NCBI GenBank assembly: GCA_038087875.1
Contig: CM075990.1
Span: 5,644,001 to 5,708,000 of the forward strand
Origin: Malacoraja senta
Lineage: Eukaryota
Direction: 5' to 3'
DNA length: 64,000 bases
In this document: positions 3,150 through 43,319 of the stretch, piece after piece
Numbering within the stretch: position 1 is the stretch's first letter
Layout of the letters: the number at the start of each line of letters is the position of its first letter
Program-made: the position numbers and the translations under genes
The notes under the pieces: generated by a model
Database searches by the model: none
What the model was told of the DNA's origin: nothing
What the model saw: the letters and a program-made list of their open reading frames with translations, nothing else

Positions 3150-3620
3150 GGCCAGTCTGAAGAAGGGTCCCATTCCAAAACATTGCTTATCCACGTTCTC
3201 CAGAGATGCTGCCTGACCCGTTGAGTTACTTCAGCACTTTGGGCTGGCTTGGATAGGCACCAATGGGAAAGTCTAGGACTAGAGGCCACAGACTCAGAAT
3301 TAAAGGCTGTTCCTTTAGGAAGGTGAGGAGTAATTTCGTTAGTTAGAGGGTGGTGAATCTGTGGAATTCTTTGCCACAGAAGGCTGTGGAGGCCATCAAT
3401 GGATATTTTTAAGGCAGAGATAGATAGATTCTTGATTAGTGTGCGTGTCAAGGGTTATGAGGAGAAGGCAGGAGAATGAGTTTAGGAGGGAGAGATAGAT
3501 CAGCCATGATTGAATGGTGGGGTAGAGACTTGATGGGCGAAATGGCCTAATTCTGCTCATGTCTCTCATGACCTTGTGTTTTTTTTATAAACTAGTATCT
3601 GCAGGTCCTTGTGCCTACAT
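3150..3620 (+). mobile_element. Penelope-derived terminal repeat interrupted by a CR1 3' fragment (about 3255-3570)
   Basis: CAGTCTGAAGAAGGG...AGATGCTGCCTGACC..., then CR1 text (GTGGTGAATCTGTGGAATTC), then the PLE tail resumes at about 3575. Confidence 0.65.
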
Positions 3621-3877: not shown

Positions 3878-4187
3878 AGTTTTTTGTTTTAGAAATACAG
3901 TGCGGAAATAGGCCCTTCGGCCACCGAGACTGCACTGACCAGCGGTCCCCACACACTAACACTTCCCTACACACATAGGGAGAATTTTACATTTATACCA
4001 AGCCAATTAAACCTACAAACCTGTATGTCTTTGGAGTGTGGGAGGAAACTGAAGATCTCGGAGAAAACCCACGCAGGTCACGGGGAGAACGTACAAACTC
4101 CGTAGAGATAAGCACTTGTAGTCAGGATCAAACCCGGTTCTCTGGCGCTGTAAGGCAGTAGCTCTACCCATGCACCACCGTGCACCC
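3878..4187 (-). mobile_element. V-SINE (HE1-like)
   Basis: Aligns by eye to the copies at 16920, 20095 and 61366. V-domain GGTTTCCTCCCACACTCCAAAGAC on the minus strand. Confidence 0.85.
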
Positions 4188-4270
4188 AATTTAAGTGTGA
4201 TTCTCTCACTGATGGTTAAATCAAATGAGACCTGTCGGTATCACCAACTTGAATCATTTCCTACTGACAG

Positions 4271-4450
4271 GCATGTGGCTTGGTCCTGAGTTACCTGACG
4301 GAGAGCAAGAGGAACTACACCAACATTCTTTGGATGACTCTGCGAGACGAAGTGGTGCTGGAAGGGAACGGCCAAATGTACACTCCCCGGGAACCGTCCT
4401 GCTTCGAGCGGCCAATCCGTGTACCTACGGAGTCACCAGAGCAATTGGAG
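4271..4450 (+). CDS. PALD1: Paladin internal coding exon (ACGLVLSYLTESKRNYTNILWMTLRDEVVLEGNGQMYTPREPSCFERPIRVPTESPEQLE)
   Basis: Acceptor ctgacAG and donor GTgagt. 180 nt, phase 0/0. W..LR.E.V.E..G..Y motif. Confidence 0.93.
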
Positions 4451-4757
4451 GTGAGTAATCTTTGCAAGGTTTGCTTGAAATTAATAACATCAAGCATTCA
4501 AAATTGGGATAACATAGAACTAGTGTGAACGGGTGATGGATGGTCAGCGTAGACTCGGTGGGCTAAAGGGTCCGTTTCCATCTGTATCTTTCAATTAATC
4601 ATCTGCAGATATGGTTGTTCCCCCTATTATCTGAATAACGATTGTCTCCATGAAAACAGATGTGCAGATTTAATATAAAACATGAAAGACAAGCACTTGC
4701 TTTATATAACACTTTTCTCAGCTTCAGGAGGTAAAAAAACAACTAAATAATCAATGA

Positions 4758-4980
4758 GGGTAGACTAAATTGCTGGAAACCTCAGCGGGTGCAGCAGCAT
4801 CTATGGAGCGAAGGAAATAGGCAACGTTTCGGGCCAAAACCCTTCTTCAGACTGATGAAATTGTCTGATACAGTCTATTTCCTATTTCCTTCGCTCCATA
4901 GATGCTGCCGCACCCGCTGAATTTCTCCAGCAATTTTGTCTACCTTCGATTCTCCAGTGTCTGCAGTTCCTTCTTGAACA
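4758..4980. mobile_element. Penelope-derived fold-back non-autonomous element
   Basis: Inverted arms GTAGAC...GTCTAC. Hammerhead-like core on the minus strand at 4823-4850. Flanking direct repeat AACT(A/T)AATAATCAATGA at 4741-4757 and 4981-4997. Confidence 0.75.
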
Positions 4981-5169
4981 AACTTAATAATCAATGAATT
5001 GCTTTTGAAGTCACTATTGAAAAATAGTTACAAAATGAACTGAAGTTACTTTCTGACACCTACGTCCACTACCAAGAAGGACAAGCCCAGAGGTGCATGT
5101 GAACACTGCCCCCAAAGAAAATAGAAACATAGAAAATAGGTGCAGGAGGAGGCCATTTGGCCCTTCGAG

Positions 5170-5735
5170 CGTGCACCCAACAGGATCGTTTCACTGAACA
5201 CCTTCGCTCAGTCCGCCTGAACCTACCTGATCTCCCGGTTACTAAACACTTTATTTCTCCTTCCCATTCCCACACTGGCCTTTCTGTCTTAGACCTCCTC
5301 CATTGTCAGAGTGAGGCTAAATGCAAATTGGAGGAACAGCATCTTGTATTTAGCTTAGGCAGTTTTCAGCCCAGTGATATGAATATTAATTTCTCTAACT
5401 TCAAGTAACCCCAGCATTCCCTCCCTCTCGCTCCCTCTCCCTCTCTATCTCTCTCTCTCTCTCCCTCTCTCTCTCTCTCTCTATCCCTCTCCCACCTAAG
5501 TCGCACCAGCTTCTAATTTTTCACCCAACAAACAGCTAACAATGGCCTGTTTCTTTTATATTTGTTACTTTTTTGCATTCATTGTTCTATATCTCTCAAC
5601 ATCATCGTCTATATCTCTCGATTCCCTTTTCCCTAACTAGTCTGAAGAAGGGTCTCGACCCGAAACGTCACCCATTCCTTCTCTCCAGAGATGCTGCCTG
5701 TCCCGCTGAGTTACACCGGCCTTTTGTGTCTATTA
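5170..5735 (+). mobile_element. Penelope-like element 3' fragment (GIY-YIG C-terminus plus terminal repeat with hammerhead-like motif)
   Basis: ORF 5157-5408 (DRFTEHLRSVR...KLEEQHLVFSLGSFQPSDMNINFSNFK) is homologous to 8494-8868. Intact core motif at 5642-5669. Confidence 0.85.
5642..5669 (+). ncRNA. Minimal type I hammerhead-ribozyme-like motif (best sense-strand copy)
   Basis: CUGAAGA-A-GGGU[CUCG]ACCC-GAAA-CG-UC gives the CUGAnGA, helix II, GAAA, palindromic ACGU and UH elements. Helix I is only about 2 bp. Confidence 0.6.
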
Positions 5736-6115
5736 GGTTTATTGCCAAGTCGTACACTGTCCTGACTTGGAAGTATATTGCTGGTCTTTCTTCCTCACTG
5801 TATCTTACCCCCGGGACTCCCCGTCCACCAGCACTGCGGGAGCACTGCATCACACTGGCAACAGTGACTCAAGAGGCCAACTCACCACCACACCCCCAGG
5901 GTAGTCCGGGATCGGTAGCAAACGCTTATCTTGCCAGCAATGTCCACGCTACAAAAGGTGAAAGAAGCCACTGATTTGTGTTTGGGATGAGCAGAAGCCA
6001 TCCCAGTTTGTCTCTTTGATGGGGGGTAAAGCCAGCTTAAAGGTTCCCATCAACCGAAAAGCAGATGAATATAATTCTGGGTTTTGTTAATTGCACGGTT
6101 TTATTTTTCTCGAAG

Positions 6116-6313
6116 GAACTAGAGAGCAGCCTTAAAAATGAGATCCTGGCATCGCAGAAGTTGCTTGAAGTGCGCGCTGGCCGGGAGAAGCAGATGAAAC
6201 TGTTTAAAAGCTGCCTCACCATGCAGGAGATTTTCAACCAGCTTAAAGCTTCCCATCCAGGCCTGGTTTACAGACGTATACCCATCCTGGACTGTGGCGC
6301 TCCGAGAGAAACG
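6116..6313 (+). CDS. PALD1: Paladin internal coding exon (ELESSLKNEIL...KSCLTMQEIFNQ...GLVYRRIPILDCGAPRET)
   Basis: Acceptor ttatttttctcgaAG and donor GTaatt. 198 nt, phase 0/0. CLTMQE.F and Y.RIP..D..APRE motifs. Confidence 0.93.
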
Positions 6314-6523
6314 GTAATTATAACGGGGTATTATAGTTGAGAGAGAACTACAGAAAGTGTCTCTTTGGTGGAGTAAAGCCAGAGGCAGTGGATGTTTGTT
6401 CTGATGCCACAGTGCCCTACATGGTGGCATTTAGCTCTCCCCTCCCTGCAGTCTGAGCCTACAGAGTTATTGCTTCATGCTGATGCCCAGCTTACCATTT
6501 AGCATCTAACTCTTGTGTCCAGC

Positions 6524-6730
6524 TGTGGTGCAGCAGGTAGAGCTGCTGCCTCACAGCGCCAGAGATCCAGGCTCAATCCTGACCTTGGGTGCTGTCTGTG
6601 TTGAGTTTGCATGTTCTCCCTGTGGCCACGTGGGTTTCCACATGGTGCTCTGGTTTCCTCCCACATCCCAGAGACGTGCGGGTTTATAAGTTAATTGACC
6701 TCTATAAATTGTCCCTAGGGTGCAGGGTGT
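6524..6730 (+). mobile_element. V-SINE, older subfamily
   Basis: GTGGTGCAGCAGGTAGAGCTGCTGCCTCACAGCGCCAGAGA head and V-domain. Confidence 0.75.
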
Positions 6731-7489
6731 GGATGGGAAAATGGAATAATTCAATGTACATAATTAATTGTAAGTTGCGTACAGTAGGAAAAATGTGTTG
6801 TGACGTTTGGCTTTTTAATCTGTGACTTTACTGGGCATCAGTGAAAAATCCAGTTGTTCACCTGGAACAGTAAAATATAGCTAGTGGCTGTCTCAGCTTA
6901 GAACGGTAGAAGACCAACTAACTGCCCAGTAACATACACGTTATCACCCAGTAATGAAATAATAACGGGTGGAGACATAGCCATGAACATCCATGCCTTG
7001 CATCTTTTGTCCTTTACTCTGGCTTCCACGTTGCCATGGGGAACAGACCATCCTCTCCCTCTGCATCAATGATCCAACCAGTCAATGGATACCTGTTTAC
7101 ACCCAGATGGGGGCAGTGGGCTTGCCTTACATTTTTCTGTGTGTGGGTGTTTTGACATGCATATGTTTATTTCTGAAGCAGACAAATGAAACAGTTTGGT
7201 CCTATAAGATCTCAACGTGTGAAATGGTTTTGGTTAAACCTCTGCTAATCATAGTGATGCCACGTGCACCCATCCCCTTCAATTTTGTGTCCACTTTTAA
7301 TCATCTCAGGAGGCATTGAGGCTCGGCAGTTACTATTGCGCCCTCTAGCGATCTAGGTTCGATCTTGATATGAGGAGCTGTGTAAAGTTTCCACCGTCTC
7401 CCTGGGTGCTCTGGTTTCCTCCCATAGCCCAGAGATATGCTTGGACAGTTAATTAGCCACTGTAAATGACCCCTAGTGTAGCAGATTAA

Positions 7490-8245
7490 TGTGAGGTGTT
7501 GCATGTTTGGAAGTCAAACCAGGACAGGACCTTCACAGTAAATGGCAGGATTATGGACAGTCTTGCAGAGCAGACTGATCTCATATAACAGGTACATAGT
7601 TCCTTGAAAGTGGCATTGTAGGTAGAAAGAGTGGTCAAGAAGTCCTTTGGTACATTGGCCTCCATCGTCAGGGTATTAAGTGTACAAGTTGGTGATGTTA
7701 CAACTGTACAAGGTGCTGGTGAGGCTATAGGTGGAGTATTGTGTTCAGTTTTGGGCACCCTGCTATAGGAAAAATATTGTTAAGCTGCAAAGAGTACAGA
7801 GAAGATCTACAAGGATGTTGCCAGGACTTGAGGGAAAGGGTTATAGGGAGAGGTTGGGCAGGCTAGGACTTTATTCCTTGGAGCGTACGTAGTAAGGAGA
7901 GAAGTGATCTTATAGAGGTGTGTAAGATCAGGGTGGGAATAGATAGGTAGATGCACAGAATTTTTTTAACCCAAAGTTGGGGGATCAAGAACTAGAGGGC
8001 ATAGGTTTAAGGTGAGAGGGGGAATATTTAATAGGAATTAGGGGAAACCTTTCACACAGAGGGTGGTGTGTATGTAGAATGAGCTGCTAGAGGACGTAGT
8101 TAAGATGGAAACTATAACAACATTTAAAAGACATTTGGACATGTACATGATAGGCAGGGAGGACTAGTGTAGATGGGGCACCCCTAGTTGCAGGGGACAA
8201 GCTGGGCAGAAGAGCCTGTTTCTGTGCTGTATGACTCTATGACTA
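7490..8245 (+). mobile_element. CR1 LINE 3' fragment, degenerate (a V-SINE relic at about 7315-7485 precedes it)
   Basis: Decayed RT C-terminus (GAGTATTGTGTTCAGTTTTGG; GGACTTTATTCCTTGGAGCG) and a TATGACTC-type tail. Confidence 0.8.
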
Positions 8246-8544
8246 ACAATCAAAAGAGAGATGATGAGCATGCGTGAAACAATACTTTACAGAACCACAG
8301 GGAAATAAGAAGCGAAGTTTGACCCATGGGGTCCTTCTCTGTCTTTGTAAGTAACCACATTGCATTGATACTATCAGAAGAGATACTTGTATTATAACAC
8401 ACCTTTCAAGACACAAGAACACCATAAATATTTTACAACCAGTCAAGTAAATGTAATCACTGGTCTAATGTGGGAATGGATCCCTTGTAGTATTTGAATT
8501 GTTCATCCAGAGAGAGCCAACCTTCACAAATACACCCCCAAACA

Positions 8545-9102
8545 TTACAAAACACATTTTACACCTCCTCCAACCTCATCTATTGCATCCACTGCTCTAG
8601 ATGCCAGCTGCTCTACATCGGTGAGACCAAGCGTAGGCTTGGCGATCGCTTCGCCGAACACTTCCGCTCGGTCCGCAATAACCAACCTGATCTCCCGGCG
8701 GCTCAGCACTTCAACTCCCCCTCCCAATCCGAATCTGACCTTTCTGTCCTGGGCCTCCTCCACGGCCAGAGTGAGGACCACTGGAAATTGGAGGAGCAGC
8801 ACTTCATATTTCGCATGGGCAGTTTATACCCCAGCGGTATGAACATTGACTTCTCCAATTTCAGGTAGCCCTCACTGTCTCCTCCCCTTCTCAGCTCTCC
8901 CTCAGCCCTCTGGCTCCTCCTCCTCCTTTCTTCTACCCCCCCCCCCCCCCCCACCCCACATCAGTCTGAAGAAGGGTTTCAGGCCAAAACGTTGCCTATT
9001 TCCTTCGCTCCATAGATGCTGCCTCACCCACTGAGTTTCTCCTTCTACCTTCGTCTTTTGTCTACCTTCAATTTTCCAGCATCTGCAGTTCCTTCTTAAA
9101 CA
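8545..9102 (+). mobile_element. Penelope-like element 3' fragment encoding a GIY-YIG endonuclease
   Basis: SSNLIYCIHCSRCQLLYIGETKRRLGDRFAEH...HFN...LEEQHFIFRMGSLYPSGMN, followed by the terminal repeat with a decayed hammerhead-like core at about 8966. Confidence 0.9.
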
Positions 9103-9119
9103 CTTTAAATCAAGCCTAT

Positions 9120-9410: not shown

Positions 9411-10272
9411 TTGTATTCAAGCAAGTAGGCAATCTCCAACTGTAGGCAAGCAAATCTTCTCACCCCACTGGAAATTATTTTTATTCACTGGCTTTGCTTG
9501 AACTGTAGTGAAGGAGAGATCTCGCTGGCATTACTCTGGAAACGTGACACTTTTGCTCAGCCAAGCCAGAATGACTAATGACTACAAACTTGCAATATCA
9601 CCAGGTGTCATTCACCAGGCGTGAATACCTGAGAAAGAAAACCAAATGCAGCTCTCAGAGTAAATCTGTTCAAATTATTTCACAGCTGCAGTTACCCCAA
9701 CCAACCCTACAATTTCCCTTCCTTTAACTCTGTGTGTTCCATTTCCAGATCTAATTTGACATTGCCTATCCCACACTTCATCTATTTTACAATGCTAAGT
9801 CCACACTGACCATCCTTATCTAAGTGACAATCTTCACAGGTATATGTAGGCTATTGAAGAAACGAGGAACTGCAGAAGATGGTTTGCAATAGAAGATTCT
9901 ATGCTGGAGTAGCTCAGTAGGTCAGGCAGCATCAGAAAAGAAAATGGATAGGTGCCATTTTGGGCCGAGTCTCCTCTTCAGTCAGAAGAAGGATATTGAC
10001 CCAAAACTTCACCTATGTATGTCCTCCTCAAATGCTGCCTAACCCGCTGAGCGACTCTAGCACAGTTTTTTCTGCGGATTATTAAACTTGTCTTCACCTG
10101 ATACTCAGGATCCTGCACACCACAAAATACCCAAATGTTAGACACAGCATGACATTTCAATGCAAGAAAGGATAATAATTGACAGAAGCTTTTGTAAGAT
10201 AAACTTTGAGAACTTCTGTCTGGATTCTTAAGATGTTTCTCATTAATCACAGAATTTTTGATTTCCCTCAAG

Positions 10273-11228: not shown

Positions 11229-12787
11229 AAGTTGACATCGAGCCAGCACAGAGTCAGAGGGACAACTGGCCTCCTTATCACTCTGTTACCATGGTGTGGT
11301 CTTGTGAAATTTTCCGCGAATGATCCATCTCTGCCGTTTCCTGAGTCTCAATGCTACCACGTAACTTTTAGCAATCTGATTCGCTCCACGTGTTATCAAG
11401 AAATGATGAATGCAATGGCTACAGGACTGGACAACATCACAGCTCTACAGATCCCCCCCCCCCCCCCCCCCCCCCGTGCCTTTAGCCATGATGTCCTGCC
11501 ATCGCCAGTTTCCTGGTATCTACCGAACGTCGTTTGATATGTTGTGTTCTGCCTTTTGCCATGAGACGTGGGATGGGTCTGCAGTCAAATGTTGAATCCC
11601 CAGGGCCTGCATCACTCTGCTGACCTGGTGACTCTGCCCTGCTGCACATAACCCAGAACAGAGCAGTCTAACCTGTTGCCTGTTAGCTGTGATTGTGTGA
11701 GTAGGATGTTATCAGGTAATTGCCTCACTAGTCTGTAGAACAGCTCTTTCAATCTGGGCGCCAGTCCCCAGACGTTTGTGAGGAGGGACTTTAAGCGACT
11801 TTGCTATGCCTGAATTTGGCATCTGGTCTGTCAATTTGCTTTTTGCTTTTTTCTATTTTAATATAGTGGTTTAATGCAACTTGGTGCTTGCCAGACCTAT
11901 TCAGAAGAGGGAAAAAAAAAATGTCTGAAGAAGGGTCCCAACCTGAAACATCACCTATCCATGTTCTCCAGGGATGCTGATTGACCTGCTGAGTTACTCA
12001 AGCACTTTTTTTTGTAAACAGGCACCTGCGATTCCTTGTTTCTCTTTTCACAAGAGAGTTAAGTTTTGACCGTGTTGTCCGCAGTAAGACCGTTACAAGT
12101 GACTCGCCTTCTCTCTCCAAGGCGTTTCCAGCATATACAAGGCACATCAAAAGTTGATGCAATATTTTCCATTTTTCCAAGAAATTCAACACCAGCCGGG
12201 ACAAAGAAGGTCTTCACTGCAACCCTTCACCATGGCTCCTACAATTCCTGATTCTGTAACCTCTATCACCAGAGAATTAAAGACAGCAGCCACTGGGGAC
12301 ACCACTTACAGTCCTCTCCATGTTGCATGCCGCCCTCATTTGGAAATATATCACCATTCATTCCTTGCTTGTGGGTCCCAATCCTGGCGTTCCTACCCGA
12401 CAGCACTGTGCAAATACCTTCGCTAATACTGGAATGTATTGGGAACATCCTGGGAATGAATATAAAAAGGGGAAGGCAGCTCTTGGGATTGCTGTCTAAT
12501 GGAACATGCACTGTCTAGACAGTGGGTGAAGGCTAGGGTTGGTGTGCGCAGCTGTCTTTGGTCAAATAACTGGATAACCAAAGAAAAATGTTTCCCTTTT
12601 GAGCCAAGGGGAAAATAGCATTTTGAAATTGCCCGCCAACTTGATCGTACTTGAAGTACTACAACCTTGGGTCTTGTGGGCTGGGATGTTTTAAGGACAT
12701 CTCTCCCTTAACATTTTTACATTGTTCAACACTGATTTAAGCAGCAAACTAACCACCTGCTCATGCTGTTTCCTGTTCTTATTTCAG

Positions 12788-12973: not shown

Positions 12974-13158
12974 AAGTAGACACAAAATGCTGGAGTAACT
13001 CAGCGGGACAGGCAGCATCTCTGGTGAGAAGGAATGGGTGATGTTTCGGGTCGAGACCCTTCTTCAGACTTCTCCAGAGATGCTGCCTGTCCCGCCGATT
13101 TACTCCGGTATTTTGTGTCGATCTTCGATTTAAACCAACATCTGCAGTTCTTTTCTAC
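12974..13158. mobile_element. Penelope-derived fold-back element
   Basis: Inverted arms. Core on the minus strand at about 13040-13067. Direct repeat ACCACTG(T/A)ATTTCCT at 12959-12973 and 13159-13173. Confidence 0.75.
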
Positions 13159-13204
13159 ACCACTGAATTTCCTTATGGTCATCCAGTCCCCCTTCTGTGG
13201 AAGA

Positions 13205-14795: not shown

Positions 14796-14987
14796 TGTTT
14801 AAGAAGGAACTGCAGATGCTGGAAAATTGAAGGTAGACAAAAATGCTGGAGAAACTCAGCAGGTGAGGCAGCATCTATGGAGCGAAGGAAATAGGCGACG
14901 TTTCGGGTCGAGACCCTTCTTCAGACTGATGGTCTTCGCTCCATAGATGCTGCCTCACCCGCTGAGCTTCTCCAGCATTTTTGTCTA
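14796..14987. mobile_element. Penelope-derived fold-back element
   Basis: Intact core on the minus strand at 14897-14924. Direct repeat CCATTGTCAATAATA at 14774-14788 and 14988-15002. Confidence 0.75.
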
Positions 14988-15921
14988 CCATTGTCAATAA
15001 TAGTGATCAGCATCTCCCCATTACCCACTAGGTTGCTGGGCAACTCGCTTCACAGATGCAACGTAAAATTGTGAACTGCTGCCTTTCTGATCCCAACACT
15101 GCTTGCTCAAGAGGTCAGCATTTAACACAACATTTGTTTTCCTCCTGATTAAACCTGTCCAGGAAACTTCTACAACCGGCCCAGACTGGTTTGGAATAAT
15201 GTGTCCATTGTTTTCTGGATCCAGGCACAGGTGGCCACTGATGCCTAGATGAGTTGCAACGAGGCTTTTAAGTAGGATGCCACTTGACTGTGACACAGAC
15301 CAAACTCATTGATTCACAAGATTTGCACGGTGCCGAGTCTGTCAATGCCCTGTGTCCCAATGTTGGATCTTTCTGGGAGACCACTGTGAGGCATTCACTA
15401 TTTATAATTTAGAAGAGAATTGGAATTGAACTACTATATACCTCATTGGTGACCCTCGGACTATCTTTGATCTGGCTTTCCCTTGCACTAAACGTTATTC
15501 CCTTACCATGTATTTATACACTATAAATGGCTCAATTGTAATCACGTATTATCTTTCCGCCGACTGGTCAGCACGCAACAAGAGCGCTTCACTTTACCTC
15601 GGTGCACGTGTTAACAAACTAAAAGTGAAATTGAAGAGTGAATGGGTGAGGCAAGTAGGGTTATGGTGCCTAGAAAAACACATCTCTCCAATGTGAGGCA
15701 CAGCAGTATTAAGTTTGCTTTCTGAATGTAGAACAATGAACAACACAGTGCAGTGACAGGCCCTTTGGCCCTCAGTGGCCGTGCTAGCCGTGGTGCCAAT
15801 TAGAACTATTCCCAAATGCTAGCACATGATCTATATCAGTCCAGGACACAAAGTGCAGGAGTAGCTCAACGGGTCTGGCAGCATCTCTGGAGAACATGGA
15901 TAGGTGATGTTTAGGGGGAAG

Positions 15922-16620
15922 GTATTGTATTGTATTGTATTGTATATCTTTATTGTCATTTCCTGAGTATTCGCATACCCAGAGGAAACAAAAAAACGTT
16001 CCTCAACCAGTGTCCATTCCAGTGTGCAGTAAAAAATAAATAGAAGTAAAAATACATATATCATGAACAAATTAACACTCTACTCTACTAAACATCAACA
16101 GGCGTTCCGATCGGCAGCGGCACGACAGTGGCTCTGCTGCAGTGTGTCCAGGTTGGTGGTTGGTGCACGATACTTTGGCAGGGGACAAAGTCCGTTTATC
16201 AGTCTTATAACCTGCGGGAAGAAGCTGAGGAGCATCCTGCTGGTTTTGCACCTAATGCTCCGGTACCTCTTCCCAGATGGCAGGATGGAGAATATGTGAT
16301 GCGGTGGGTGGTAGGGGTCTTTGATGATGGAGATGGCTCTGCTGATACATCTCTTCCTGTATATGTCCAGCAGGAAAGGGAGTGGAGCACCAATAATCCT
16401 GCTGGCAGTCTTCACAATCCTGTCTAGTTGGTGCCGTTCGTACGCCTTGCAGCTCCCGAACCAGGAAGTGATGCCGTAGGTTAATGTGCTCTCGATTGTC
16501 CCCCGATAAAAAGTTCGTAGGTGTGTAGTGGGGAGACCTGCTTTACGTAGTCTTCGGAGGGGGTGTAGTCACTGCTGGGCTCTCTTGACCAGTGCTGTGG
16601 TGTTGGTCGTGGACGTTGGT
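15922..16620 (-). mobile_element. Rex/Babar-like LINE 3' fragment nested in a Penelope-derived element (about 15843-15915 and 16650-16750)
   Basis: ORF 16095-16415 (KTASRIIG..LP....IY..RC...A..II.DP.HP.H..F..LPSGKRYRS...SFFPQ.IRL.N) and a (CAATA)n tail. Confidence 0.85.
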
Positions 16621-20385: not shown

Positions 20386-20672
20386 AACTACAACCTGGAG
20401 TTCATCATGAAATTAAAAGAAAGATAAGTTTACATTGAAGATAGACACAAGAAGCTGGAGTAACTCAGCGGGACAGGCAGCATCTCTGGAGAGAAGGAAT
20501 GGGTGACATTTTGGGTCGAGACTCTTCTTCAGTTACATTGGTCAGGGTGCAGAGGAGTTTGAAGATGATGCCAGATGTGGGAAGTCTAAGCTCAGAGGGA
20601 AGATTGGATAGATTGAGGCTATTTAAAAAAAAAAAAAAAAAAAAGGAACAGAATTGCTTGTGGGGAAACTTT

Positions 20673-25112: not shown

Positions 25113-25217
25113 TATGCAAGGAAGGGTGCTGTTCTGCCCATTGTGAAGATGTTGGGCATAGGTGGTCTTCAGGTTAATCCATGCCCAGTTATTGACAGAC
25201 GTTTTGTAAGTGATGGA

Positions 25218-25312
25218 AGGTAGACACAAAATGCTGGAGTAACGCAGCGGGACAGGGAGCATCTCTGGAGGGAAGGAATGGGTGACGTTTCGGGTCGAGA
25301 CCCATCTTCAGA
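25218..25312 (-). mobile_element. Penelope-derived monomeric mini-element with hammerhead-like core (25284-25311)
   Basis: About 95 bp, flanked by perfect TTGTAAGTGATGGA at 25204-25217 and 25313-25326. Confidence 0.75.
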
Positions 25313-27063
25313 TTGTAAGTGATGGATATTGAAATGGACATCCACGTACTTTGTAATTGTGGCAATCATTTCTGCCTGGACCACCCTCTCAGGATGTGAG
25401 CATGAGACCTTCATTACCAATGAGGGAAATGTTTGTCCTCGCCTTCCCTCTAATCTTCCTTCCAATTAACTTAAATGCTCCCATGGTTACTCTCCTCTCA
25501 AAGAAATATTGCAGTGCATAAGAAGATAATGCTACTTATCGTTAGTATTGATTTCCATTTAGGAGGATAGCTCATTCCTGTTCACACTTTCCAGACCTCC
25601 CATAATTTTATACAGCTTGTCCCCAGGTTTTGGCAGCTTTCCATTCCCAAGAACTGTTCGTAACCCAAACCATTTGCAAGTTGGAAATGTGGCCATGAAC
25701 CAATTTCCTGCGAGGCAGATGATGCCTATGACCCAAAGCCACTCTCCCCTTCTCCACTCTCCCCTTCCACTTATATCTCACTCTCTGGCTTTTCATTTAA
25801 TTCACCTTCTCTCCTTATTTAACATCCTTTTGCCTCCTTACTATTTCTCCATCCATCTGCCATCCCAATCCCCCCGACCATATTTGCATCCATACTTGTT
25901 AGAATTTGTATCACCCCTATCTCTCATTTTCCGCTTTCCATTATAAACCAGTCTGAAGAAGGGTCCCAATCCAAAATGTCATCTGTCCATTCCCTCCACA
26001 GATGCTGCAAGAACCACTGAGTTCCACTAGTCTTCTGCGGTTTGCTCAGCACCCAGCATCTGCAATTCCTTGGGTTTCCTGATAGCACCCTTGTTTAACT
26101 GTGCACCTACTCCAGCTCTATTGCAACCTCCTTGTGTCTTAGATTGGCATTTGGCAATGCGCACACTCCAAGTTTTGTCATGCGATGCCCTACCTTCCAC
26201 CAGAACCTGCTCCTACACTAGATACACCCACCTTCTCAGCACAGCACCTTCTGTGACCAGTTGGGCGACTCATGGCTGCAATGAGACAACTTTGATTCCC
26301 ATCGTCAGTACTGGAAAAAAAAACTAATGATCGAATATGTGCAAAAGTGCACTGGAGCGCGATCATTCATCCCTGACCTGCTGTGTTGGTAATTCTACTC
26401 ACGTCATAGATTTTGTGGAACTCGTTACTGAAAGTATTTGGTGAGGGACTACATTTTGATGGGAGTGAGCCTGTGGGGATTTGGAAGAAAAATATAATTC
26501 ATGGCCAGACACTGTTGAAGTCACTTCCGCCTCTTGCACTACTGCAGATGTGCGTCTGGAAAAGCAGACTCCTGAAGTGAATGGCACTTATCCAACTTTT
26601 GTTGCATTGCTGAATACAAATATCACACACCCAACAGCTGGTTCTATCTTGGGTTTTTTAAATTTAAGAATTTTATTAACTGCAACCAAAGATTTAACTG
26701 CTTAGGTTTACAGCAGTGTTATGATTAGCTGCTGGCTCTTGTATAAGTTGATTAAGTTGTATGACTGGAACTCGGATTTTGAAATCACTATTGTTTGCAT
26801 CCCATTGTGGGCAATGGAACATTAAAAAAAACACTAAAGGTATTTACTGCACAATGTATGTAAATCAACATTGTCCATTAATTGCATATAATCTGTTATG
26901 CAGAACATTGACAGCACGGGAACAGGCCCTTCGTCCCACATAGTCCATGCCAACCATGATGCCGTTAAACTAATCTCCTCTGCCTGAATGTTATCCATAT
27001 CCCTCCATTCCCTGCATATCCATGTGTCTCTCTCAAAAATTCTTAAATGCCAGTATCTGCCTC

Positions 27064-31790: not shown

Positions 31791-33453
31791 TGAAATATAG
31801 TAAATATTTTGACTGCTCCACTGCAAAATCTCCTCAAGGGATGCCTAATTTGAAGAAGTTCTCCTCCTCTCTCCGGTAGTTCTATGAGACCCTCACTCAC
31901 TGCTCCCCCCCTGTGATTCCTGCGAATCCCCCCCCCCCCCTCCGATCTCTGGCCTTTGTTCGATCCATCTGCCCAGCAATCCCCCCCACTTCTCGCCTAC
32001 ATCCACATTACCTGCCGCTCTGTGTTCTGTCTCTCTATCCTTCTGGCATTCTTCTCCTGCGCCTCGTCCCCCACAATCAGTATGAAGAAGGGTCTTGACC
32101 CAAAATGTCACCTGTCCATGTGCTCCAGGGACACTGCCTAACCCACTGAGTTACTCCAGCACTTTGTGTCCTTTTATTGTAATGCTGTTGGTCTCACATT
32201 TACAAGGACACTTTCACTCTGACTGCATCTTCTGAAGTTTGTACACAAAGGGTTAACTGATCGTGGTAAACTCTGCTCATAATAACCATTAAGACTCCTT
32301 CTATTGCTTTGAGCAATTGGAAACTACTTGTAATGGGTGTCTGTACCATGACTGCAGTTGCTGGAACATGGCTAAATGCATTAAAGGGGTCACAGGCATG
32401 CATGGTGTAGAAGTGCTCACTTGTGCCCAGGGAGTTAACAAGGAGCTGTAAAAACAGATATGGGCATCACATTGCACGATTGACTGATGTCCTCAGTATA
32501 CTCTGGCCAATTGCTTTCACGATTAGGTAGTTTTCATGCAACCTGCTCAAGGTATTGATTGTGATGTGCATCATGCTAACTGCATTGTAAAATGCAGCCA
32601 TAAGCAAGGGCATTCTAAATCTGAACTTGTCAGCATTAATTACAACTAGTGGTTCCAGGGAGTTGGTTTTGTAACTGGGGTAGATACCGGCTGTTACACA
32701 GAAAGGGGGTTTGACTTGGGGAAGCAATAGCAGATATCAGGGCACGGTAGAGAGTAGGGTCTAAGCGTTTTGGGAATTGCATTGGGTGGAGGAGAATGAT
32801 GGTAAGAAGGTCAGTTCCATGAAATGGATGCTGCTTCAACCAGTGAATGAATCATTTCCAGTCACTTATGGAAATGTCACATGTAAAATATTATAACAAA
32901 TCAGCAAAGAAGCTTTGGAATGAAATAAACTGAATCTTCGTTTAACTCAAAATTTGGCAGAGGAGAGATACAGAAAATGATCAAGAGTGTGTTTGTACCA
33001 ATTTAAATGGGCAAAGTGAGATCCTTTGTCCCATGTAATAGTGACTGTCCTTCTCAAGTAATCTCCTAATTAGAAACTATATGGAACTTCAGAGCATAGG
33101 TGTTCAGTAAATGCAACTTTTGTACATGCAACTAATTTTGTTTTCATCAACAATTGACTGAATAGAGCTGTCAGATCTGAGGTCATCCAGGAAGCATATA
33201 TTTAACATAATGGAGGAATTAGAAGGAAGATGGAGAAGATTATTTTCAGGAGGAGGGTCAGGAATCTGGAACTGGCTCAAGGAATGTTTAGTGGAAACGG
33301 AAACCTCAAAACGTTCAAGCATTTCAAAGAGCTGTGTCCATCTCTGGATCAAGTGCCCGAAGGTGAGATGAGGGAACCCTCTCATTTCTGATACTGATCT
33401 AATTCGTGGAATAACCTTCATTTCAGTGTTGCTGAATCTGTGGAATAATATGT

Positions 33454-33637
33454 TTAAGAAGGAACTGCAAATGCTGGAAAATCGAAGGTAGACAAAAATG
33501 CTGGAGAAACTCAGCGGGTGAGGCAGCATCTATGGAGCGAAGGAAATGGGCAACGTTTCAGACCCAAAACGTTGCCTATTTCCTTCACTCCATAGATGCT
33601 GCCTCACGCGCTGAGTTTCTCCAGCATTTTTGTCTAC
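33454..33637. mobile_element. Penelope-derived fold-back element (hammerhead centre deleted)
   Basis: Inverted arms. Direct repeat CTGTGG(A/G)ATAATATGT at 33438-33453 and 33638-33653. Confidence 0.75.
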
Positions 33638-33899
33638 CTGTGGGATAATATGTACAGTTTACTTATGAACTGACTGACTGGTCTTGGTGAAAGGAAATAA
33701 AGTTACCAGAATAACAGTCTCGAGTCCAACGGAGTTTGCCCTTTGTCCTTGATGGCTTTTCCCTGGTACAAGGCCTCCGACCATTGTTGATCACATTCTT
33801 ATTATTAATTCTACACACATGTTGCCAATGAAACAGCAGGAGTGTTGTGAATTTGCTGCCAGCTTTCCGACCAGTTTCTTCCATTTCTCAGAATGTGGG

Positions 33900-34480: not shown

Positions 34481-35754
34481 AATGTATAACTCTCCCCACT
34501 GACCTTTGGGAAACCTTGAGCTATGATTTTTGTGATATCTTTGTCAACCTTGAATCCCCTCATTGGGAGAATTTGGAAGTGGTGGAAGAGATACACCATC
34601 TACATGCCCTGTCGATAACTCCCTGCTTCACCTATGGCAGAGTCTGCTCATTTCAATGGAGGGACTGTTGGTTTCTGGATGAAGGGGAGGGTAGAGATAG
34701 AGACGGCAACTAGAAGGTGATAAATGGGGACAAAAGGCTGTGGATGCAATAATGTGGTGAGGAAGGAAGGAAGATGACAAATGGAACCAGATCGGGGGGG
34801 CCAGATCGAACTAGTTAAGGCAGGGGCTAAACAATGCCTTGACAATGACCATGTGTAAAGGATATGTTGCTTGATGTTTGTGTTTATAATGTTACTCGCA
34901 GAAGTGGGGCTACACAGGATTCGGAACCTTACTCTTTAAAGTGCATATCTGTGTCTTATGCAGACATGATAAACAAGTTGATGATTTAAAACAGACAATA
35001 GGAGCAGAATTAAGATATTTGGTCCATCAAGTCTGCTCCACCATTCAATCATAGTTGATCTATATTTCCCCCTCAACCCCATTCTACTATCTTCTCCCTG
35101 TGACCTTTACTAATCCAGAATCTATTAATATCCACTTTAAAAATACCCAATGACTTGTCCTTCCCCGCCATCTATGACAATGAATTCCACAGATTGACCA
35201 CCCTCTGGCTAAAGAAATTTGTCTTCATCTCCATTCTAAAAGTATGTCCTTTTATTCTGAAACTGTGCCCTCTGGTCCTAGACTTTCCCACTACTGGAAA
35301 CATCTACTAAAATTGTGGTTAAAAATGTGTTGGAATGTTTTAGACAAGAAGATCCAGATTGTCAGACTAACTAGGTGGAAAGTGGCAAATGGAATGTTAA
35401 TCAAAATCATGCACTCGGGGAAATGGGTTATGTGAAGGGAGTAGACAATAAATGGGAGGTTGTTGAGAGTTGGAGAATTAATAGGAATTTGGAGTGCATG
35501 TCTGCAGACCCTTAAAGATCCACAGGTCCAAAAACTGATGAAAAATACACACAGATTTTCCATTATTAGTTTCATTATTAGTAGGCATTAAATATAGAAC
35601 CAAAATATTATACTGGAACTGTGCATGTTAACTAAGCTACAAGGTGTGAGATGCACACAGTTCTGGTCATCACATGACAGGGAAAATGTGATTCAATTTG
35701 AGATAATGTTATCGGCAATGAACGGTTTTATCTAGAAAGAAACATGAGATAAGG

Positions 35755-35846
35755 TCTGAAGAAGGGTCTCGACCTGAAACGTCACCTATTCCTTCGCTCC
35801 ATAGATGCTGCCTCACCCGCTGAGTTTCTCCATCATTTTTGTCTAC
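35755..35846 (+). mobile_element. Penelope-derived monomeric mini-element with hammerhead-like core (35756-35783)
   Basis: 92 bp, flanked by perfect CATGAGATAAGG at 35743-35754 and 35847-35858. Confidence 0.75.
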
Positions 35847-37304
35847 CATGAGATAAGGAAGGGTCGTTTGCTTTGAAACAATTAAAATGAGGAATAAGGT
35901 GTTAAAATTATGAAGAGCCTTGATATAGTAAGGAGGAAATAAATCTCCCACAGGAAGGGGGAAGAACCAGGAGTCGTTATTGGTTGTAGGATTAGAAGAT
36001 AGGTGAAAAACATTGTCTCCCACCCTCGCCCCCCCCCCCCCCAAGAGTATTTTTGCAGAAACAACTATCAGTATTAAAAATTATTTGGACGTTGACTTGA
36101 AGATCTACAGACTTGGTGGCATTAGGATGGCAAGCTTTTTATGACCAGAAACAAATGTGATGGGCCGAATGGTCTCCTGTGCTGTGAGGTATCTGTAATC
36201 CTATAATCATTATAGTTTCATGAGTCATACAGAATGGAACCGGGGGCCGTCAGCCCACCAAGTTTATATTGACTACCAACAGAACCTTTTCACACTAACC
36301 TGACAGTCATCTCACTTTGTTCTCCCCATATTCCCACCAACTCCTACCATTCACCCACATACAGTGGACAATTTATAGCGACTAATACATTTACCAGCCC
36401 ACACAACTTTATGTTGGATTTTATCCAGGCAATCACAATGAGAATGTGCAAAGTCTTTACAGACTGTATTCAAGGTCAGGATTGAACCTAGGTCATTGGA
36501 GATGTAATGCGATAGCACTAATAGCTGCGCCTTTGCCATGATCATAGTTTTCAGGAAATTATCAGTCTTTTAATAAGGCGAGAATGAATGAACATCGGAA
36601 TACTTCAGAGGATCTCTGATTTTGGAAAAGGCGAATCCTGCCTAGCACACAGTGAGTTATTTTGATGGAGGATGTCTCGAGATATTACTTACATGGACCT
36701 CCATAGGATATTTGATATAGTCCCCCATAAAAGATTTAATTCAATCTAAAGCTCATGAAATTGCAGGTAAATCATTGACCCAGCTGGGATAATGACTGAA
36801 TTCCAGGAGCCAGTGAAGGAATAATGTACAGTTACCAATCAGAATATGTCTGGTAAAGTCCAATAAAAAGATTCTGTACTGGATTTACAAAATATTCACT
36901 CTATTTAATGAAGACTCAACTGATATTGAAACAGATTATACAATGGCATAAAGATTAAGTAAAGTACAAAGGGAAACATTTAACTACAGAGATATTATTA
37001 AGTTAATTAGTAAAGAAGGAAATTGCAAGATTGAGTCGTAAAAATAAGTAATGGAAAGAGACTTGACAGTCCTTGTAAACTGATGATTAAAATCTCAAAC
37101 AGAAGAAACAATGGCAGTCTCAAACATCCCGGTTTTCAATTCTGCTTGTAAGTCCTCGGTGAAGTTTAAACTTTAATGAACAATTTATATGGAATGTAGA
37201 GCATCCATTCTAGCAGTTCCATTGGAGATGTTGATCTGAAAGTAAATTGGAAATTGATCTCTCACTAATTTTGTACGACTTGGGAAAATGACTTCTGATC
37301 CAGA

Positions 37305-37615
37305 TAGCCTTTCTGTCTGAGGGCTCCTCCATTGTCAGCTAAACTCAAATTGGAGGAGCAGCATCTCATATTTTGCTTGGGCAGCTTACAGCCCAGTGGT
37401 ATGAATATTGATTTCTCTCACTTCAGGTAGCCCCGGCATTCCCTCTCCCTCTATCCCACCCCCACCCAAGTCGCACCAGCGTCTCATTTTCACCCCACAA
37501 ACAGCTAACAATGGCCTGTTTCCTTTATCATCGTTATTTTTTGGCATATCTTTCATTCATTGTTCTTTATCTGTCCACATCGCTGTCTATCTCCCATTTC
37601 CCTTATTCCCTAGGT
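37305..37615 (+). mobile_element. Penelope-like GIY-YIG 3' fragment
   Basis: Aligns to 5280-5640 and 8740-8870. Confidence 0.75.
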
Positions 37616-38085: not shown

Positions 38086-41021
38086 CTAGTCCCATCTACC
38101 TGCACTCAGACCATAACCCTCCATTCCTTTCCCGTCCATATACCCATCCAATCTATTTTTAAAGGATAACATCGAACCTGCCTCCACCACTTCCACTGGA
38201 AGCTCATTGCACACAGCTACCACTCTCTGAGTAAAGAAGTTCCCCCTAATGTTCCCCCTAAACTTCTGTCCCTTAATTCTCAAGGGTCTTAATTGAATCT
38301 TCCCTACTCTCAATGGGAAAAGCTTATCCACGTCCACTCTGTCTAACCCGCTCATAATTTTAAAGACCTCTATCAAGTCCCCTCTTAACCTTCTGCGCTC
38401 CAAAGAATAAAGACCTAACTTGTTCAACCTTTCTCTGTAACTTAGTTGCTGAAACCCAGGCAACATTCTAGTAAATCTCCTCTGTACTCTCTCTATTTTG
38501 TTGACATCCTTCCTATAATTAGGCGACCAAAATTGTACTCCATACTCCAGAATTGGCCTCACCAATGCCTTGTACAATTTTAACATTACATCCCAACTTC
38601 TATATTCAATGCTCTGATTTATAAAGGCCAGCACACCAAAAGCGTTCTTTACCACCCTATCTACATGAGATTCCACCTTCAGGGAACTATGCACAGTTAT
38701 TCCTAGATCCCTCTGTTCAACTGCATTCCTCAATTCGCTACCATTTACCGTGTACGTCCTATTTTGATTTGTCCTGCCGAGATGTAGCACCTCACATTTG
38801 TCAGCATTAAACTCCATCTGCCATCTTTCAGCCCACTCTTCCAAATGGCCTAAATCTCTCTGTAGACTTTGAAAATCTACTTCATTATCCACAACACCAC
38901 CTATCTTAGTATCATCTGCATACTTACTAATCCAATTTTCCACACCTTCATCCAGATCATTGATGTACATGACAAACAACAGTGGACCCAACACAGACCC
39001 CTGAGGCACCCCACTAGTCACCGGCCTCCAACCTGACAAACAGCCATCCACCATTACTCTCTGGCATCTCCCATTCAGCCACTGTTGAATCCATCTTGCT
39101 ACTCCACCATTAATACCCAACAATCGAATCTTCTTAACCAACCTTCCATGAGGAACCTTGTCAAAGGCCTTCCTGAAGTCCATATAGACAACATCCACTG
39201 CTTTACCCTCATCAATTTCCCTAGTAACCTCTTCGAAAAATTCAAGAAGATTAGTCAAGCATGACCTTCCAGGCACAAATCCATGTTGACTGTTCCTAAT
39301 CAGACCCTGCTTATCCAGATGCTTATATATATTATCTTTAAGTATCCTTTCCATTAATTTGCCCACCACTGACGTCAAACTAACAGGTCTATAATTGCTA
39401 GGTTTACTCTTCGAACCCTTTTTAAACGGAACAACATGCGCAGTACGCCAATCCTCCGGCACTATTCCCGTTTCTAATGACATTTGAAATATTTCTGTCA
39501 TAGCCCCTGCTATTTCTACACTAACTTCCCTCAATGTCCCAGGGAATATCCTGTCAGGACCTGGAGACTTATCCGTTTTCATATTTTTCAAAAGTGTCCG
39601 CACCTCCTCTTCTTTGAATCTCACAGTTTCCATTGCTACTCTGCTCGTTTCCCTTACCTCACATAATTCCATATCCTTCTCCTTCGTGAATACCGAAGAA
39701 AAGAAATTGTTCAATATCTCCCCCATCTCTTTTGGCTCTGCAGATAGCTGTCCACTCTGACTCTCTAATGGACCGATTTTATTCCTTGTTATCCTTTTGC
39801 TATTAATATAGCTGTAGAAACCCTTTGGATTTACTTTCACCTTACTTGCCAAAGCAACCTCATATCTTCTTTTAGCTTTTCTAATTTCTTTCTTAATATT
39901 CTTTTTACATTCTTTATACTCCTCAAGCACCTCATTTACTCCATGCTGCCTATAATTATTGTAGATCTCTCTCTTTTTCCGAACCGTGTCCAATTTCCCT
40001 TGAAAACCATGGCTCTTTCCATTTTTTTACTATTTCCTTTCAACCGAACAGGGACATAAAGATTCTGTACTCTTAAAATTTCACCCTTAAATGTCCTCCA
40101 TTTTTCTTCTACATCCTTCCCATAAAACAACATGTCCCAATTCACTCCTTTTAAATCCTTTCGCATCTCCTCAAAGTTAGCCTTTCTCCAAACAAAAATC
40201 TCAACCCTAGGTCCAGTTCTGACCCTCTCCATAATTATATTGAAACTAATGGTATTGTGATCACTGGACCCGAAGTGCTCCCCGACGCATACCTCCGCCA
40301 CTTGCCCTGTCTCATTTCCTAACAGGAGGTCCAGCACTGCCCCTTCTCTAGTAGGTACCTCTATGTATTGCTGCAAAAAACTATCTTGCACACATTTTAC
40401 AAACTCCAAACCATCCAGCCCATTTACAGAATGTGTTTCCCAGTCTATGTGTGGAAAATTGAAATCTCCCACAATCACTACCTTGTGCTTACTACTAATA
40501 TCTGCTATCTCCTTACATATTTGCTCTTCCAATTCTCGCTTCCCATTTGGCGGTCTATAATACACCCCTATAAGTGTTGCTACACCTTTCCCATTTCTCA
40601 GTTCCACCCAAATAGCCTCCCTAGACGAGCCCTCTAATCTATCCTGCCAAAGCACTGCTGTAATATCTTCCTTGACAAGCAATGCAACACCCCCACCTCT
40701 TGCCCCTCCAATTCTATCACCCCTGAAGCAACGAAATCCTGGAATATTTATTTGCCAATCACAGCCCTCCTGCAACCATGTTTCACTGATCGCCACAACA
40801 TCATACTTCCAGGTGTCAATCCAGGCTCTAAGCTCATCCACCTTTCTTACAATGCTCCTAGCATTAAAATATACACATTTAAGAAACCCACCACCACTTA
40901 TTCTCTGTTTATTATCTTTTTCTTCTTTCTCCCCTACATTTTGGGTCCGAGTGCTTCCCTTCTCTGCCTCCTGCCTCCCACATTTTCCACTAGCTTTCTC
41001 TATTTGAGTCCCTCCCCCCAA
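38086..41021 (-). pseudogene. CR1 ORF2 (APE endonuclease plus reverse transcriptase), frameshifted near 39985-40030
   Basis: APE motifs: YFNARS, ISETWL, GDFN, LDL, SDH. RT motifs: PGPD, YRPVSLTS, QHGF, DF.KAFD, GVPQGSVLGP, YADD. Split into ORFs 39936-41021 and 38086-39993. Confidence 0.93.
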
Positions 41022-41026
41022 CCGTT

Positions 41027-41411
41027 CTAGTTTAAAGTCTCCCCAGTAGCCTTTGCAAATCTCCCCGCCAGGATATTGGTGCCCCTCGGGTTCAAGTGCA
41101 ACCCGTCCTTTCTGTACAGGTCACTCCTTCCCCAAAAGAAATCCCAATGATCCAGAAATTTGAATCCCTGCCCGCTGCACCAGTTCCTCAGCCACGCATT
41201 TATCCTCCACCTCACTCCATTCCTACTCTCACCGTCACGTGGCACAGGTAGTAATCCTGAGATTGTTACCTTTGTAGACCTTCTCCTTAACTCTCCTCCC
41301 AACTCCCTAAATTCTCCTTTCAAGACCTCTTCTCTTTTTCTACCTATGTCATTGGTACCTATATGTACCACAACCTCAGGCTCCTCTCCCTCCGATTTCA
41401 GGATATCTTGG
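41027..41411 (-). pseudogene. CR1 ORF1 C-terminal SGNH/GDSL esterase-like fragment
   Basis: VHIGTND...DGLHLN motifs, typical of CR1 ORF1 esterases. Confidence 0.85.
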
Positions 41412-41862
41412 ATATGAAGAAAGACTGGATAGACTCGGCTTGTACTCGCTGGAATTTAGAAGATTGAGGGGGGATCTTATAGAAACGTACAAAATTCTTA
41501 AGGGGTTGGACAGGCTAGATGGAAGAAGATTGTTCCCGATGTTGGGGAAGTCCAGAACAAGGGGTCACGGTTTAAGGATAAGGGGGAAGTCTTTTAGGAC
41601 CGAGATAAGAAAAAAAATGTTCACACAGAGAGTGGTGAATCTGTGGAATTCTCTGCCACAGAAAGTAGTTGAGGCCAGTTCATTGGCTATATTTAAGAGG
41701 GAGTTAGATGTGGCCCTTGTGGCTAAAGGGTTCAGGGGATATGGAGAGAAGGCAGGTACAGGATACTGAGTTGGATGATCAGCCATGATCATTTTGAATG
41801 GCGGTGCAGGCTGTATGGCCTACTCCTGCACCTGTTTTCTATGTTTCTGTGTTTCTATGTTT
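41412..41862 (+). mobile_element. Host CR1 fragment, right part (RT C-terminus and 3' tail)
   Basis: YEERLDRLGLYSLEFRRLRGDLIETYKI...FTQRVVNLWNSLP and a (TTTCTATG)n tail. Confidence 0.9.
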
Positions 41863-43266: not shown

Positions 43267-43319
43267 CCAAGCTTGTCTCCTCACTACAGTTTCTGCTGGC
43301 TCCAGTCGCAAATCTGAGT

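Follow-up and report, generated by a model that had tools for sequence, protein, structure and literature searches.

A 64,000-nt stretch of the genome of Malacoraja senta (GenBank assembly GCA_038087875.1, contig CM075990.1, positions 5,644,001 to 5,708,000; hereafter the window, with coordinates counted from its first letter) is strewn with short sequences that resemble minimal hammerhead ribozymes, raising the question of what these motifs are, which element carries them and whether they act as ribozymes. The answer we favour, with a probability of roughly 0.6, is that they are minimal type-I hammerheads residing in the pseudo-long terminal repeat (pLTR) of a Penelope-like element (PLE) that has a C-terminal GIY-YIG endonuclease and is present in very many copies, and that the copies in the window are dead insertions.

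The reference copy of the motif, CTGAAGA-A-GGGT-CTCG-ACCC-GAAAC-GTC, lies intact at 5642-5669 on the plus strand and spans 28 nt. A scan for CTGAAGA-N13-GAAAC with at most one mismatch returned 13 matches in the window against 0.45 expected (100 shuffles, the largest count being 3); 12 of the 13 belong to one repeat, the match at 36908 being unrelated. The original prediction had listed 16 places with dispersed motifs of this kind, and at all 16 the motif or a decayed form of it was found, with 0-7 differences from the 5642 copy. The copies regarded as intact, at 5642, 14897-14924, 25284-25311 and 35756, carry 0, 0, 1 and 1 differences from the 5642 28-mer, and a second variant was recovered where it had been described, at 51316 (plus strand, three differences) and, with a TTTG loop, at 4823-4850 (minus strand, four differences). 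Three to seven differences each were counted at 20505-20532, 49139-49166, 11925-11952, 32082-32109, 25953-25980, 51287-51314, 8966-8993 and 3157-3184. Only the predicted number of about 15 needs correcting upwards: 31 chained matches to the 3' region of the carrier element were counted in the window, 29 with sequence of the tail that follows the motif and two with endonuclease sequence only, and an old pair with motifs at 9954-9981 (minus) and 9983-10010 (plus) had been missed. The differences from the 5642 copy are mostly changes of CG to TG or CA, as expected for decay of methylated CpGs in dead copies, and the 28-nt motif contains three CpGs. Eight window copies agree with a simple descriptor in which CUGANGA is followed by one unpaired base, a helix II of 4 bp or longer and GAAA; six of these (5642, 14924, 25311, 35756, 51316 and 4850) also keep ACGU followed by U or C.

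Inspection of the motif revealed all 11 bases of the hammerhead core (C3-U-G-A-N-G-A9 ... G12-A-A14, A15.1-U16.1, and a cleavable H17 as GUC, or GUU in the young variant). One unpaired base, A in general and U at 25304, separates A9 from G10.1, G10.1 pairs with C11.1, and helix II comprises 4 bp (GGGU/ACCC or GGGU/GCCC); there is no helix III in cis, and the palindromic ACGU could form a 4-bp intermolecular ACGU/ACGU helix. Akin to the minimal hammerheads of PLEs (Cervera and De la Pena 2014, PMC4209133), the motif combines the core with four features reported for that class beyond its authors' descriptor, namely the extra base between positions 9 and 10.1, the G10.1-C11.1 pair, palindromic positions 15.2-16.2 and occurrence in large families per genome, as well as lacking helix III and having a short helix I. 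Likewise, those ribozymes lie in the terminal repeat of PLEs, mostly as single dispersed copies or opposite-strand pairs and in thousands per genome, as is the case here; helix II, with its 4 bp and tetraloop, differs from the 6-8 bp of the Schistosoma and Drosophila virilis motifs (PMC4209133).

The core bases and the cleavable GUC or GUU are kept in old subfamilies and in young full-length copies alike, the young copies reading CAGT-CTGAAGAAGGGTTTCGGCCCGAAACGTT, and the helix II loop varies from copy to copy (CUCG, UUCG, CCCG, UUUG). Agreement at non-CpG positions among 76 unit-spanning copies was 0.909 in the core, 0.876 in the helix II stem, 0.743 in the loop and 0.822 in the tail (63 positions). 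The excess conservation of the core over the flanking repeat, for which the original prediction had called, is present (Mann-Whitney p = 0.0014 for core versus tail), albeit modest and potentially biased by the BLAST-based choice of copies.

The link between motif and carrier was tested independently of the motif, by searching the 1.94-Gb genome with the endonuclease C-terminal protein of one locus (P0001). A first genome search with the Pfam GIY-YIG model had retrieved mainly another PLE family, the tail of the motif family being found in one of 30 loci (L003), where the unit comes after an endonuclease open reading frame (ORF). This copy (L031) has a 203-aa open frame with a GIY-YIG domain at its end, followed by an untranslated region (UTR) of about 108 nt and then by the motif and tail; it is flanked by a 14-bp target-site duplication and bears an inverted, 5'-truncated copy on its 5' side. 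Of the 107,298 first-look candidates in the P0001 search, 150 were scored, and in each of the best 30 loci, which were inspected, UTR and tail adjoin the ORF; the motif or a remnant of it sits 100-131 nt past the stop codon in 29 of these, the exception (L037) having an insertion in between.

Longer homologues in the protein collection measure 650-950 aa and contain RVT_1 and GIY-YIG domains (cut-offs passed or nearly so), one of them, from a bamboo shark, with 61% identity. As a genome query this bamboo shark protein yielded 68 scored matches of 59,997 candidates and many long open copies with frames of up to 1302 aa. There was no full-length copy among six loci picked for longer open frames. 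Full-length copies are represented by L100, L101, L102 and L103, which combine an inverted truncated copy with a direct, motif-bearing pLTR, an ORF of 1250-1302 aa and another copy of the motif, with 3.9-4.15 kb from motif to motif; L102 is a true tandem. In L100 the order is an inverted truncated copy, a partial direct copy (the pLTR) with the motif, the 1302-aa ORF, whose first in-frame ATG lies 163 nt after the motif start, the UTR and the second motif. The 1302-aa ORF shows RVT_1 (aa 786-955) and then GIY-YIG (aa 1206-1239), the expected order, and YIDDC and LYIGET motifs are legible in the element's protein. Its layout is textbook Penelope-like, which according to PMC8557442 comprises pLTRs, an adjacent inverted truncated copy and a 'tail' extension of 30-40 bp. 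The linker ahead of GIY-YIG reads CNHRRCNTC (L042) or CNRRRCNTC (L041), that is CX4CX2C, and a CX2-5CxxC linker is described there for Neptune/Nematis-type PLEs (PMC8557442), so that placement in this clade is to be taken as a lead only. Taken together, the tail at all 30 loci chosen by protein and the motif in both pLTRs of full-length copies bear out the proposal that Penelope-like termini carry the motif, and we consider it very probable that the motif is a homologue of the PLE hammerheads.

The copies in the window are dead insertion products of this element and are listed below, unit positions being counted along the repeat unit of which the motif forms the first 28 nt.

4756-4975: head-to-head pair; minus copy at 4756-4857 with motif at 4823-4850 (UUUG loop, four differences), plus copy at 4886-4975 starting from about unit position 34.
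5184-5390, plus strand: endonuclease C-terminal remnant of the PLE ahead of the 5642 copy, 72% identical to P0001 over aa 135-203.
5639-5732, plus strand: tail copy with intact motif at 5642-5669 (CUGAAGA, unpaired A, helix II GGGU/ACCC, loop CUCG, GAAA, palindromic ACGU, C17).
8539-9110, plus strand: 5'-truncated PLE copy; endonuclease remnant at 8539-8850 (aa 100-203, 70% identity), UTR, decayed motif at 8966-8993, tail with extension.
9867-10062: old, decayed head-to-head pair, motifs at 9954-9981 (minus) and 9983-10010 (plus).
11923-12008, plus strand: short solo copy, motif at 11925-11952, its palindrome now ACAU through CpG decay.
12976-13160: head-to-head pair; minus motif at 13040-13067 with one difference (G16.2 to A), plus arm from about unit position 40.
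14797-14989: head-to-head pair; minus copy with intact motif at 14897-14924 (no differences) and tail extension, plus arm at 14939-14989.
20428-20532, minus strand: solo copy with decayed motif at 20505-20532.
25204-25325, minus strand: solo 96-nt insertion (insert 25217-25312); motif at 25284-25311 with one difference, at the unpaired base (U at 25304).
25949-26023, plus strand: solo decayed copy, motif at 25953-25980.
32076-32170, plus strand: solo decayed copy, motif at 32082-32109, C3 changed to A.
33452-33639: head-to-head pair, both arms truncated within the motif (unit positions 19 and 16).
35744-35858, plus strand: solo 93-nt insertion (insert 35755-35847); motif at 35756-35783 with one difference, C11.1 to U, giving a G10.1-U11.1 pair.
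37338-37412, plus strand: endonuclease C-terminal remnant of the same PLE (aa 179-203), with no tail detected downstream.
42991-43326, minus strand: 5'-truncated PLE copy; endonuclease remnant at 43222-43326, UTR, motif at 43088-43115 with one difference (G12 to A), tail with extension.
49060-49268: head-to-head pair, motif of the plus copy at 49139-49166.
51191-51413: head-to-head pair of the young variant, joined at the motif; motifs at 51287-51314 (minus) and 51316-51343 (plus; GGGU-UUCG-GCCC, GUU, three differences).

The copies at 5642, 8966 and 43115 are each preceded by an endonuclease remnant. The insert at 25217-25312, which starts 1 nt ahead of C3, is flanked by a 13-bp target-site duplication (CCATCACTTACAA, at 25204-25216 and 25313-25325), and the insert at 35755-35847 by one of 11 bp (ATGAGATAAGG, at 35744-35754 and 35848-35858). 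A CT microsatellite occupies about 5430-5480, between the endonuclease remnant and the motif of the 5642 copy; Neptune-type linkers are associated in the literature with microsatellite targeting.

Two further features of the window raised the possibility that the hammerhead likeness is a chance property of the tail of a long or short interspersed nuclear element (LINE or SINE).

38086-41455, minus strand: CR1/L2-like LINE with a piece of GDSL-esterase ORF1, an apurinic/apyrimidinic (AP) endonuclease and a reverse transcriptase; it has no relation to the hammerhead family.
16095-16568, minus strand: open frame with a weak ALKBH8_N match, adjoining the tail-only piece at 15845-15916 and probably a C-terminal fragment of a LINE reverse transcriptase.

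It was the LINE fragment beside 15845-15916 that prompted this explanation, and the lack of an Rfam hammerhead match (see below) agrees with it. The protein-selected GIY-YIG loci, all 30 of which carry the tail, contradict it; the LINE itself is without such a tail, a second PLE family has its hammerhead at the equivalent place, and by a rough estimate the chance of meeting the full core, helix II, bulge and palindrome within about 240 nt is some 1e-6. A chance likeness in a LINE or SINE is accordingly extremely improbable.

How abundant is the family? The exact 28-mer occurs 18,728 times genome-wide and a pattern tolerant of CpG decay 98,615 times, the reversed control giving 0 in both cases. 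When a profile of the 3' region of the element was run over 864 kb from four contigs, 483 tail copies were found (104-156 per 200-264 kb), from which we extrapolate a genome total of about 1.1 million tail copies if this density is typical. The very high copy number supposed at the outset is borne out by these counts.

Most copies are solo units of about 95-135 nt with target-site duplications, or head-to-head pairs, and their ends are regular. The 5' start falls at -7 to +1 relative to C3 in 169 of the 483 copies, with a mode at -3/-2, and just 78 extend more than 20 nt upstream. In a first sample of 264 kb, 80 of 151 copies begin at -10 to +9 and 54 belong to head-to-head pairs, and where a target-site duplication of at least 9 bp marks the boundary, the start is at -6 to +1 in 9 of 14 cases. 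The apparent starts at unit positions 40-42 in the BLAST sample were not taken for real truncations, being partly alignment cut-offs in older subfamilies. The 3' ends form two main classes about 35 nt apart: throughout the window, and at L036 and L031, tail copies stop near ...GTCTACC or about 35 nt beyond (...CAGCATCTGCAGTTC...), the longer form being the sequence that follows the tail in full-length copies, immediately ahead of the ORF. This spacing matches the 30-40-bp 'tail' extension that PMC8557442 attributes to PLEs. In Logan contigs (4 of 24 runs, their RNA status being a guess) depth over the tail exceeds that over the ORF 10- to 100-fold, and in the four contig sets loose ends gather 2-6 nt ahead of C3, a property of the DNA copies; no sites at which molecules start or stop emerged from these four sets.

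Animal non-LTR retrozymes were reportedly described by Cervera and de la Pena in 2020, and the short hammerhead units, which exceed ORF-bearing copies more than tenfold both in depth and in number, could be taken for an independent, non-autonomous element of that kind, spread as hammerhead-cut circular RNA and not as a by-product of the PLE. A recent preprint (Li et al. 2026, 10.64898/2026.07.22.740005) describes animal retrozymes as short non-coding hammerhead units related to the pLTRs of PLEs, a likeness that speaks for such an origin. Retrozymes, however, are tandem repeats bounded by cut sites and propagated as circular RNA, whereas the units here lie dispersed, with target-site duplications, and their boundaries are not set by the cut site: they start at -7 to +1 and end at about positions 95-135. 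Tandem-like same-strand pairs number just 4 among the 151 copies, and short units carry the very subfamily variants seen at the 3' ends of copies with an ORF, leaving the retrozyme explanation improbable.

We instead favour a PLE by-product, which could arise as follows. Transcription of the element would begin within the upstream pLTR, some 3 nt ahead of the motif, at TCAGTC; that this sequence at the unit boundary resembles an initiator is our assumption. Such an RNA, beginning at about -3, would carry a 5' copy of the internal reverse-transcription start. The short units would then be run-off cDNAs whose priming at this internal start, some 95 nt further on within the 5' repeat copy, would be expected to fix their 5' end and to give them lengths of about 95-135 nt, and priming from both strands of the cut DNA would give head-to-head pairs. 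The ribozyme itself cannot account for the end at -3, because the hammerhead cuts 3' of the core, and neither can a block to the enzyme, which would halt before the motif and not after it. Earlier work offers precedent for parts of this scheme: transcription starts inside the pLTR in Penelope and in a Chlamys element (PMC8557442; PMC6765202), and the lizard element PAc, a Poseidon element of Anolis carolinensis (Frangieh et al. 2024, PMC11167929), has an internal reverse-transcription start downstream of its hammerhead and extends both cut target strands. On the evidence of the unit ends, we give the run-off origin of the short units even odds.

If cleavage takes place, two motifs in the source RNA would be predicted to pair through ACGU into a helix III, probably with the aid of protein, and to cut after GUC or GUU. 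What a cleaving PLE hammerhead might leave behind is suggested by the second PLE family of the same genome, which has a 759-aa ORF, exists mainly in tandem arrays and bears its hammerhead at L018:2288-2350 (G000:C5550); L002 (C897) is a further locus of this family. This type-I hammerhead is complete, with helices I, II and III of 8, 4 and 5 bp; it is predicted to act on its own, and its RNAfold minimum-energy structure is exactly the three-way junction. It keeps CUGACGA, the unpaired A, the G10.1-C11.1 pair and GAAA, and its helix II is GCUA/UAGC, the inner part being CUA/UAG as opposed to GGU/ACC in the motif family; that the core persists beside a wholly different inner helix II adds to the evidence for constraint. 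Its predicted GUC cut site is followed, apart from the canonical continuation, by at least five other sequences. Three of these correspond to internal positions in the element's own ORF (L018 1015, 1092 and 1212), in every case behind a T|A step, and several head regular arrays with a period of 1.44-1.56 kb, at about 18.28-18.36 Mb of the contig that contains the window (G000:C14; L004, L005, L027-L030). Such junctions at the scissile bond are what ribozyme-cut RNA copied from its new 3' end would leave.

No such footprint was detected in the motif family. Unit position 28 is the end of none of the 151 copies, and starts at positions 26-31 number 5, 2, 4, 4, 1 and 2 among the 483, with no peak at 29. 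Further observations point the same way, or otherwise weigh against the reading that we favour. Helix I amounts to only 2 bp (U2.1-A1.1, or U-G, and G2.2-C1.2). The original prediction had stated that the two variants keep helix II, and while the U-A to U-G exchange and the loop changes were indeed seen, this is a single one-sided change and not covariation, no helix II pair being altered on both sides within the motif family. The proposed scan with Rfam hammerhead models yielded no match, be it at the gathering score on the window, at E-values up to 10 on 5560-5760 or at E-values up to 1 on L100; this search also misses the canonical-looking hammerhead of the second family and is of low power here. 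The minimum-energy fold of 5630-5690 pairs GAAGAAGGG with CCUUCUC (z-score -0.39), and in 41-nt constructs the helix II fold was predicted at about -5 kcal/mol as against a minimum of -8, and the hammerhead-like dimer at about -13 as against a dimer minimum of -21 to -29. For the young variant, a competing hairpin of GUUUCG with CGAAAC that ties up G12-A14 is predicted. The 1302-aa ORF scores slightly below both curated Pfam cut-offs (RVT_1, 26.3 versus 29.6 bits; GIY-YIG, 19.1 versus 22.6 bits), and the transcription-start interpretation of the 5' ends is drawn solely from DNA junctions. Finally, the study of PAc reports that hammerhead mutants left insertion in vitro unaffected and that no RNA-seq ends fell at the cut site (PMC11167929).

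The low predicted stability fits earlier work on such motifs, which cleave poorly in vitro, as dimers or with assistance from protein (PMC4209133; PMC6765202; PMC11167929). In the young variant, two variant-specific bases make GUUUCGGCCCGAAAC nearly palindromic (L100, L088-L099; window 51316-51343), and the strong predicted dimer duplex would hide G12-A14. This competing hairpin or duplex could be an off-switch, or it could be irrelevant. A side observation is a perfect 81-nt hairpin at L100:7484-7564, which several microRNA models match below threshold; we discarded a microRNA identity, as these matches are most likely mere inverted repeats.

The missing footprint and the predicted alternative folds, which are more stable, are also what one would expect if a hammerhead-derived motif had been kept as a structural or protein-binding part of a 5'-terminal module that recruits the reverse transcriptase, with no cleavage in vivo. 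The position of the motif, abutting the 5' end of the mobilised unit, suits this explanation, as does the behaviour of PAc, whose insertion withstands hammerhead mutations and whose cleavage needs protein (PMC11167929), and so does the spread of Naiad PLEs without hammerheads, documented in PMC8557442. It fares less well with the retention of all 11 core bases, the G10.1-C11.1 pair and a cleavable GUC or GUU in young and old subfamilies, with the conservation of the core above tail and loop, and with the related family of the same genome, in which a full hammerhead is accompanied by junctions exactly at the cut site. Weighing both sides, we regard a purely structural role as rather unlikely, though a serious contender, and the odds that the motif family really cleaves in vivo as falling slightly short of even. 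A more elaborate and doubtful proposal is that the hammerhead would be the first structure of the element RNA and the roughly one million units of 95-135 nt 'strong-stop' cDNAs of a capped leader, primed at the internal start in the 5' repeat copy; the stretch between the RNA start and that internal start would behave as a retroviral R region does, enabling a jump to the 3' copy and the rebuilding of the pLTR, and cleavage would remove the capped 31-nt leader and might thereby switch the RNA between message and template.

Comparison with known systems places these data in context. Canonical type-I hammerheads (Rfam Hammerhead_1; Schistosoma and newt satellites) share the catalytic core and type-I topology with the motif, which differs from them in having no helix III stem-loop, a 2-bp helix I and no loop-loop contacts. 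An experimental parallel is PAc (PMC11167929): its hammerhead is also at or just upstream of the ORF start and upstream of the internal reverse-transcription start, its insertions also have a 'tail' and both target strands can prime. The PAc ORF, by contrast, begins inside stem II, whereas the first in-frame ATG here comes 163 nt after the motif start, PAc is of the Poseidon type and not of the type suggested by the CX4CX2C linker, and its protein-assisted cleavage is demonstrated whereas ours is predicted. Similar to the hepatitis delta virus (HDV)-like ribozymes of R2 and L1Tc, as presented in PMC6765202, the motif stands at the very 5' edge of the insert; those ribozymes, however, cut their own 5' end and so create the edge, while the hammerhead cuts 3' of the core. 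The main text of PMC4209133 makes no mention of shark, skate, cartilaginous or Callorhinchus, a literature search for Penelope retrotransposons in elasmobranchs returned, judged by titles, nothing on ribozymes, and the preprint of Li et al. (2026) records retrozymes and PLEs in its sole chondrichthyan species.

As minimal PLE hammerheads were already recognised in 2014, the motif as such comes as no surprise; what this genome adds is scale. The copy number is one to two orders of magnitude above the 4,000-9,000 reported for coelacanth and Xenopus (PMC4209133), with some 10^5 recognisable motifs; the 864-kb sample extrapolates to about 10^6 tail copies, which would amount to several percent of the 1.94-Gb genome. 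The very regular ends of these copies provide abundant natural data on the start points of Penelope RNAs and of their reverse transcription, questions that have been answered experimentally for one lizard element only. The contrast between the two families, a minimal motif without a footprint in one and a full hammerhead with junctions at the cut site in the other, makes the role of the ribozyme testable within one species.

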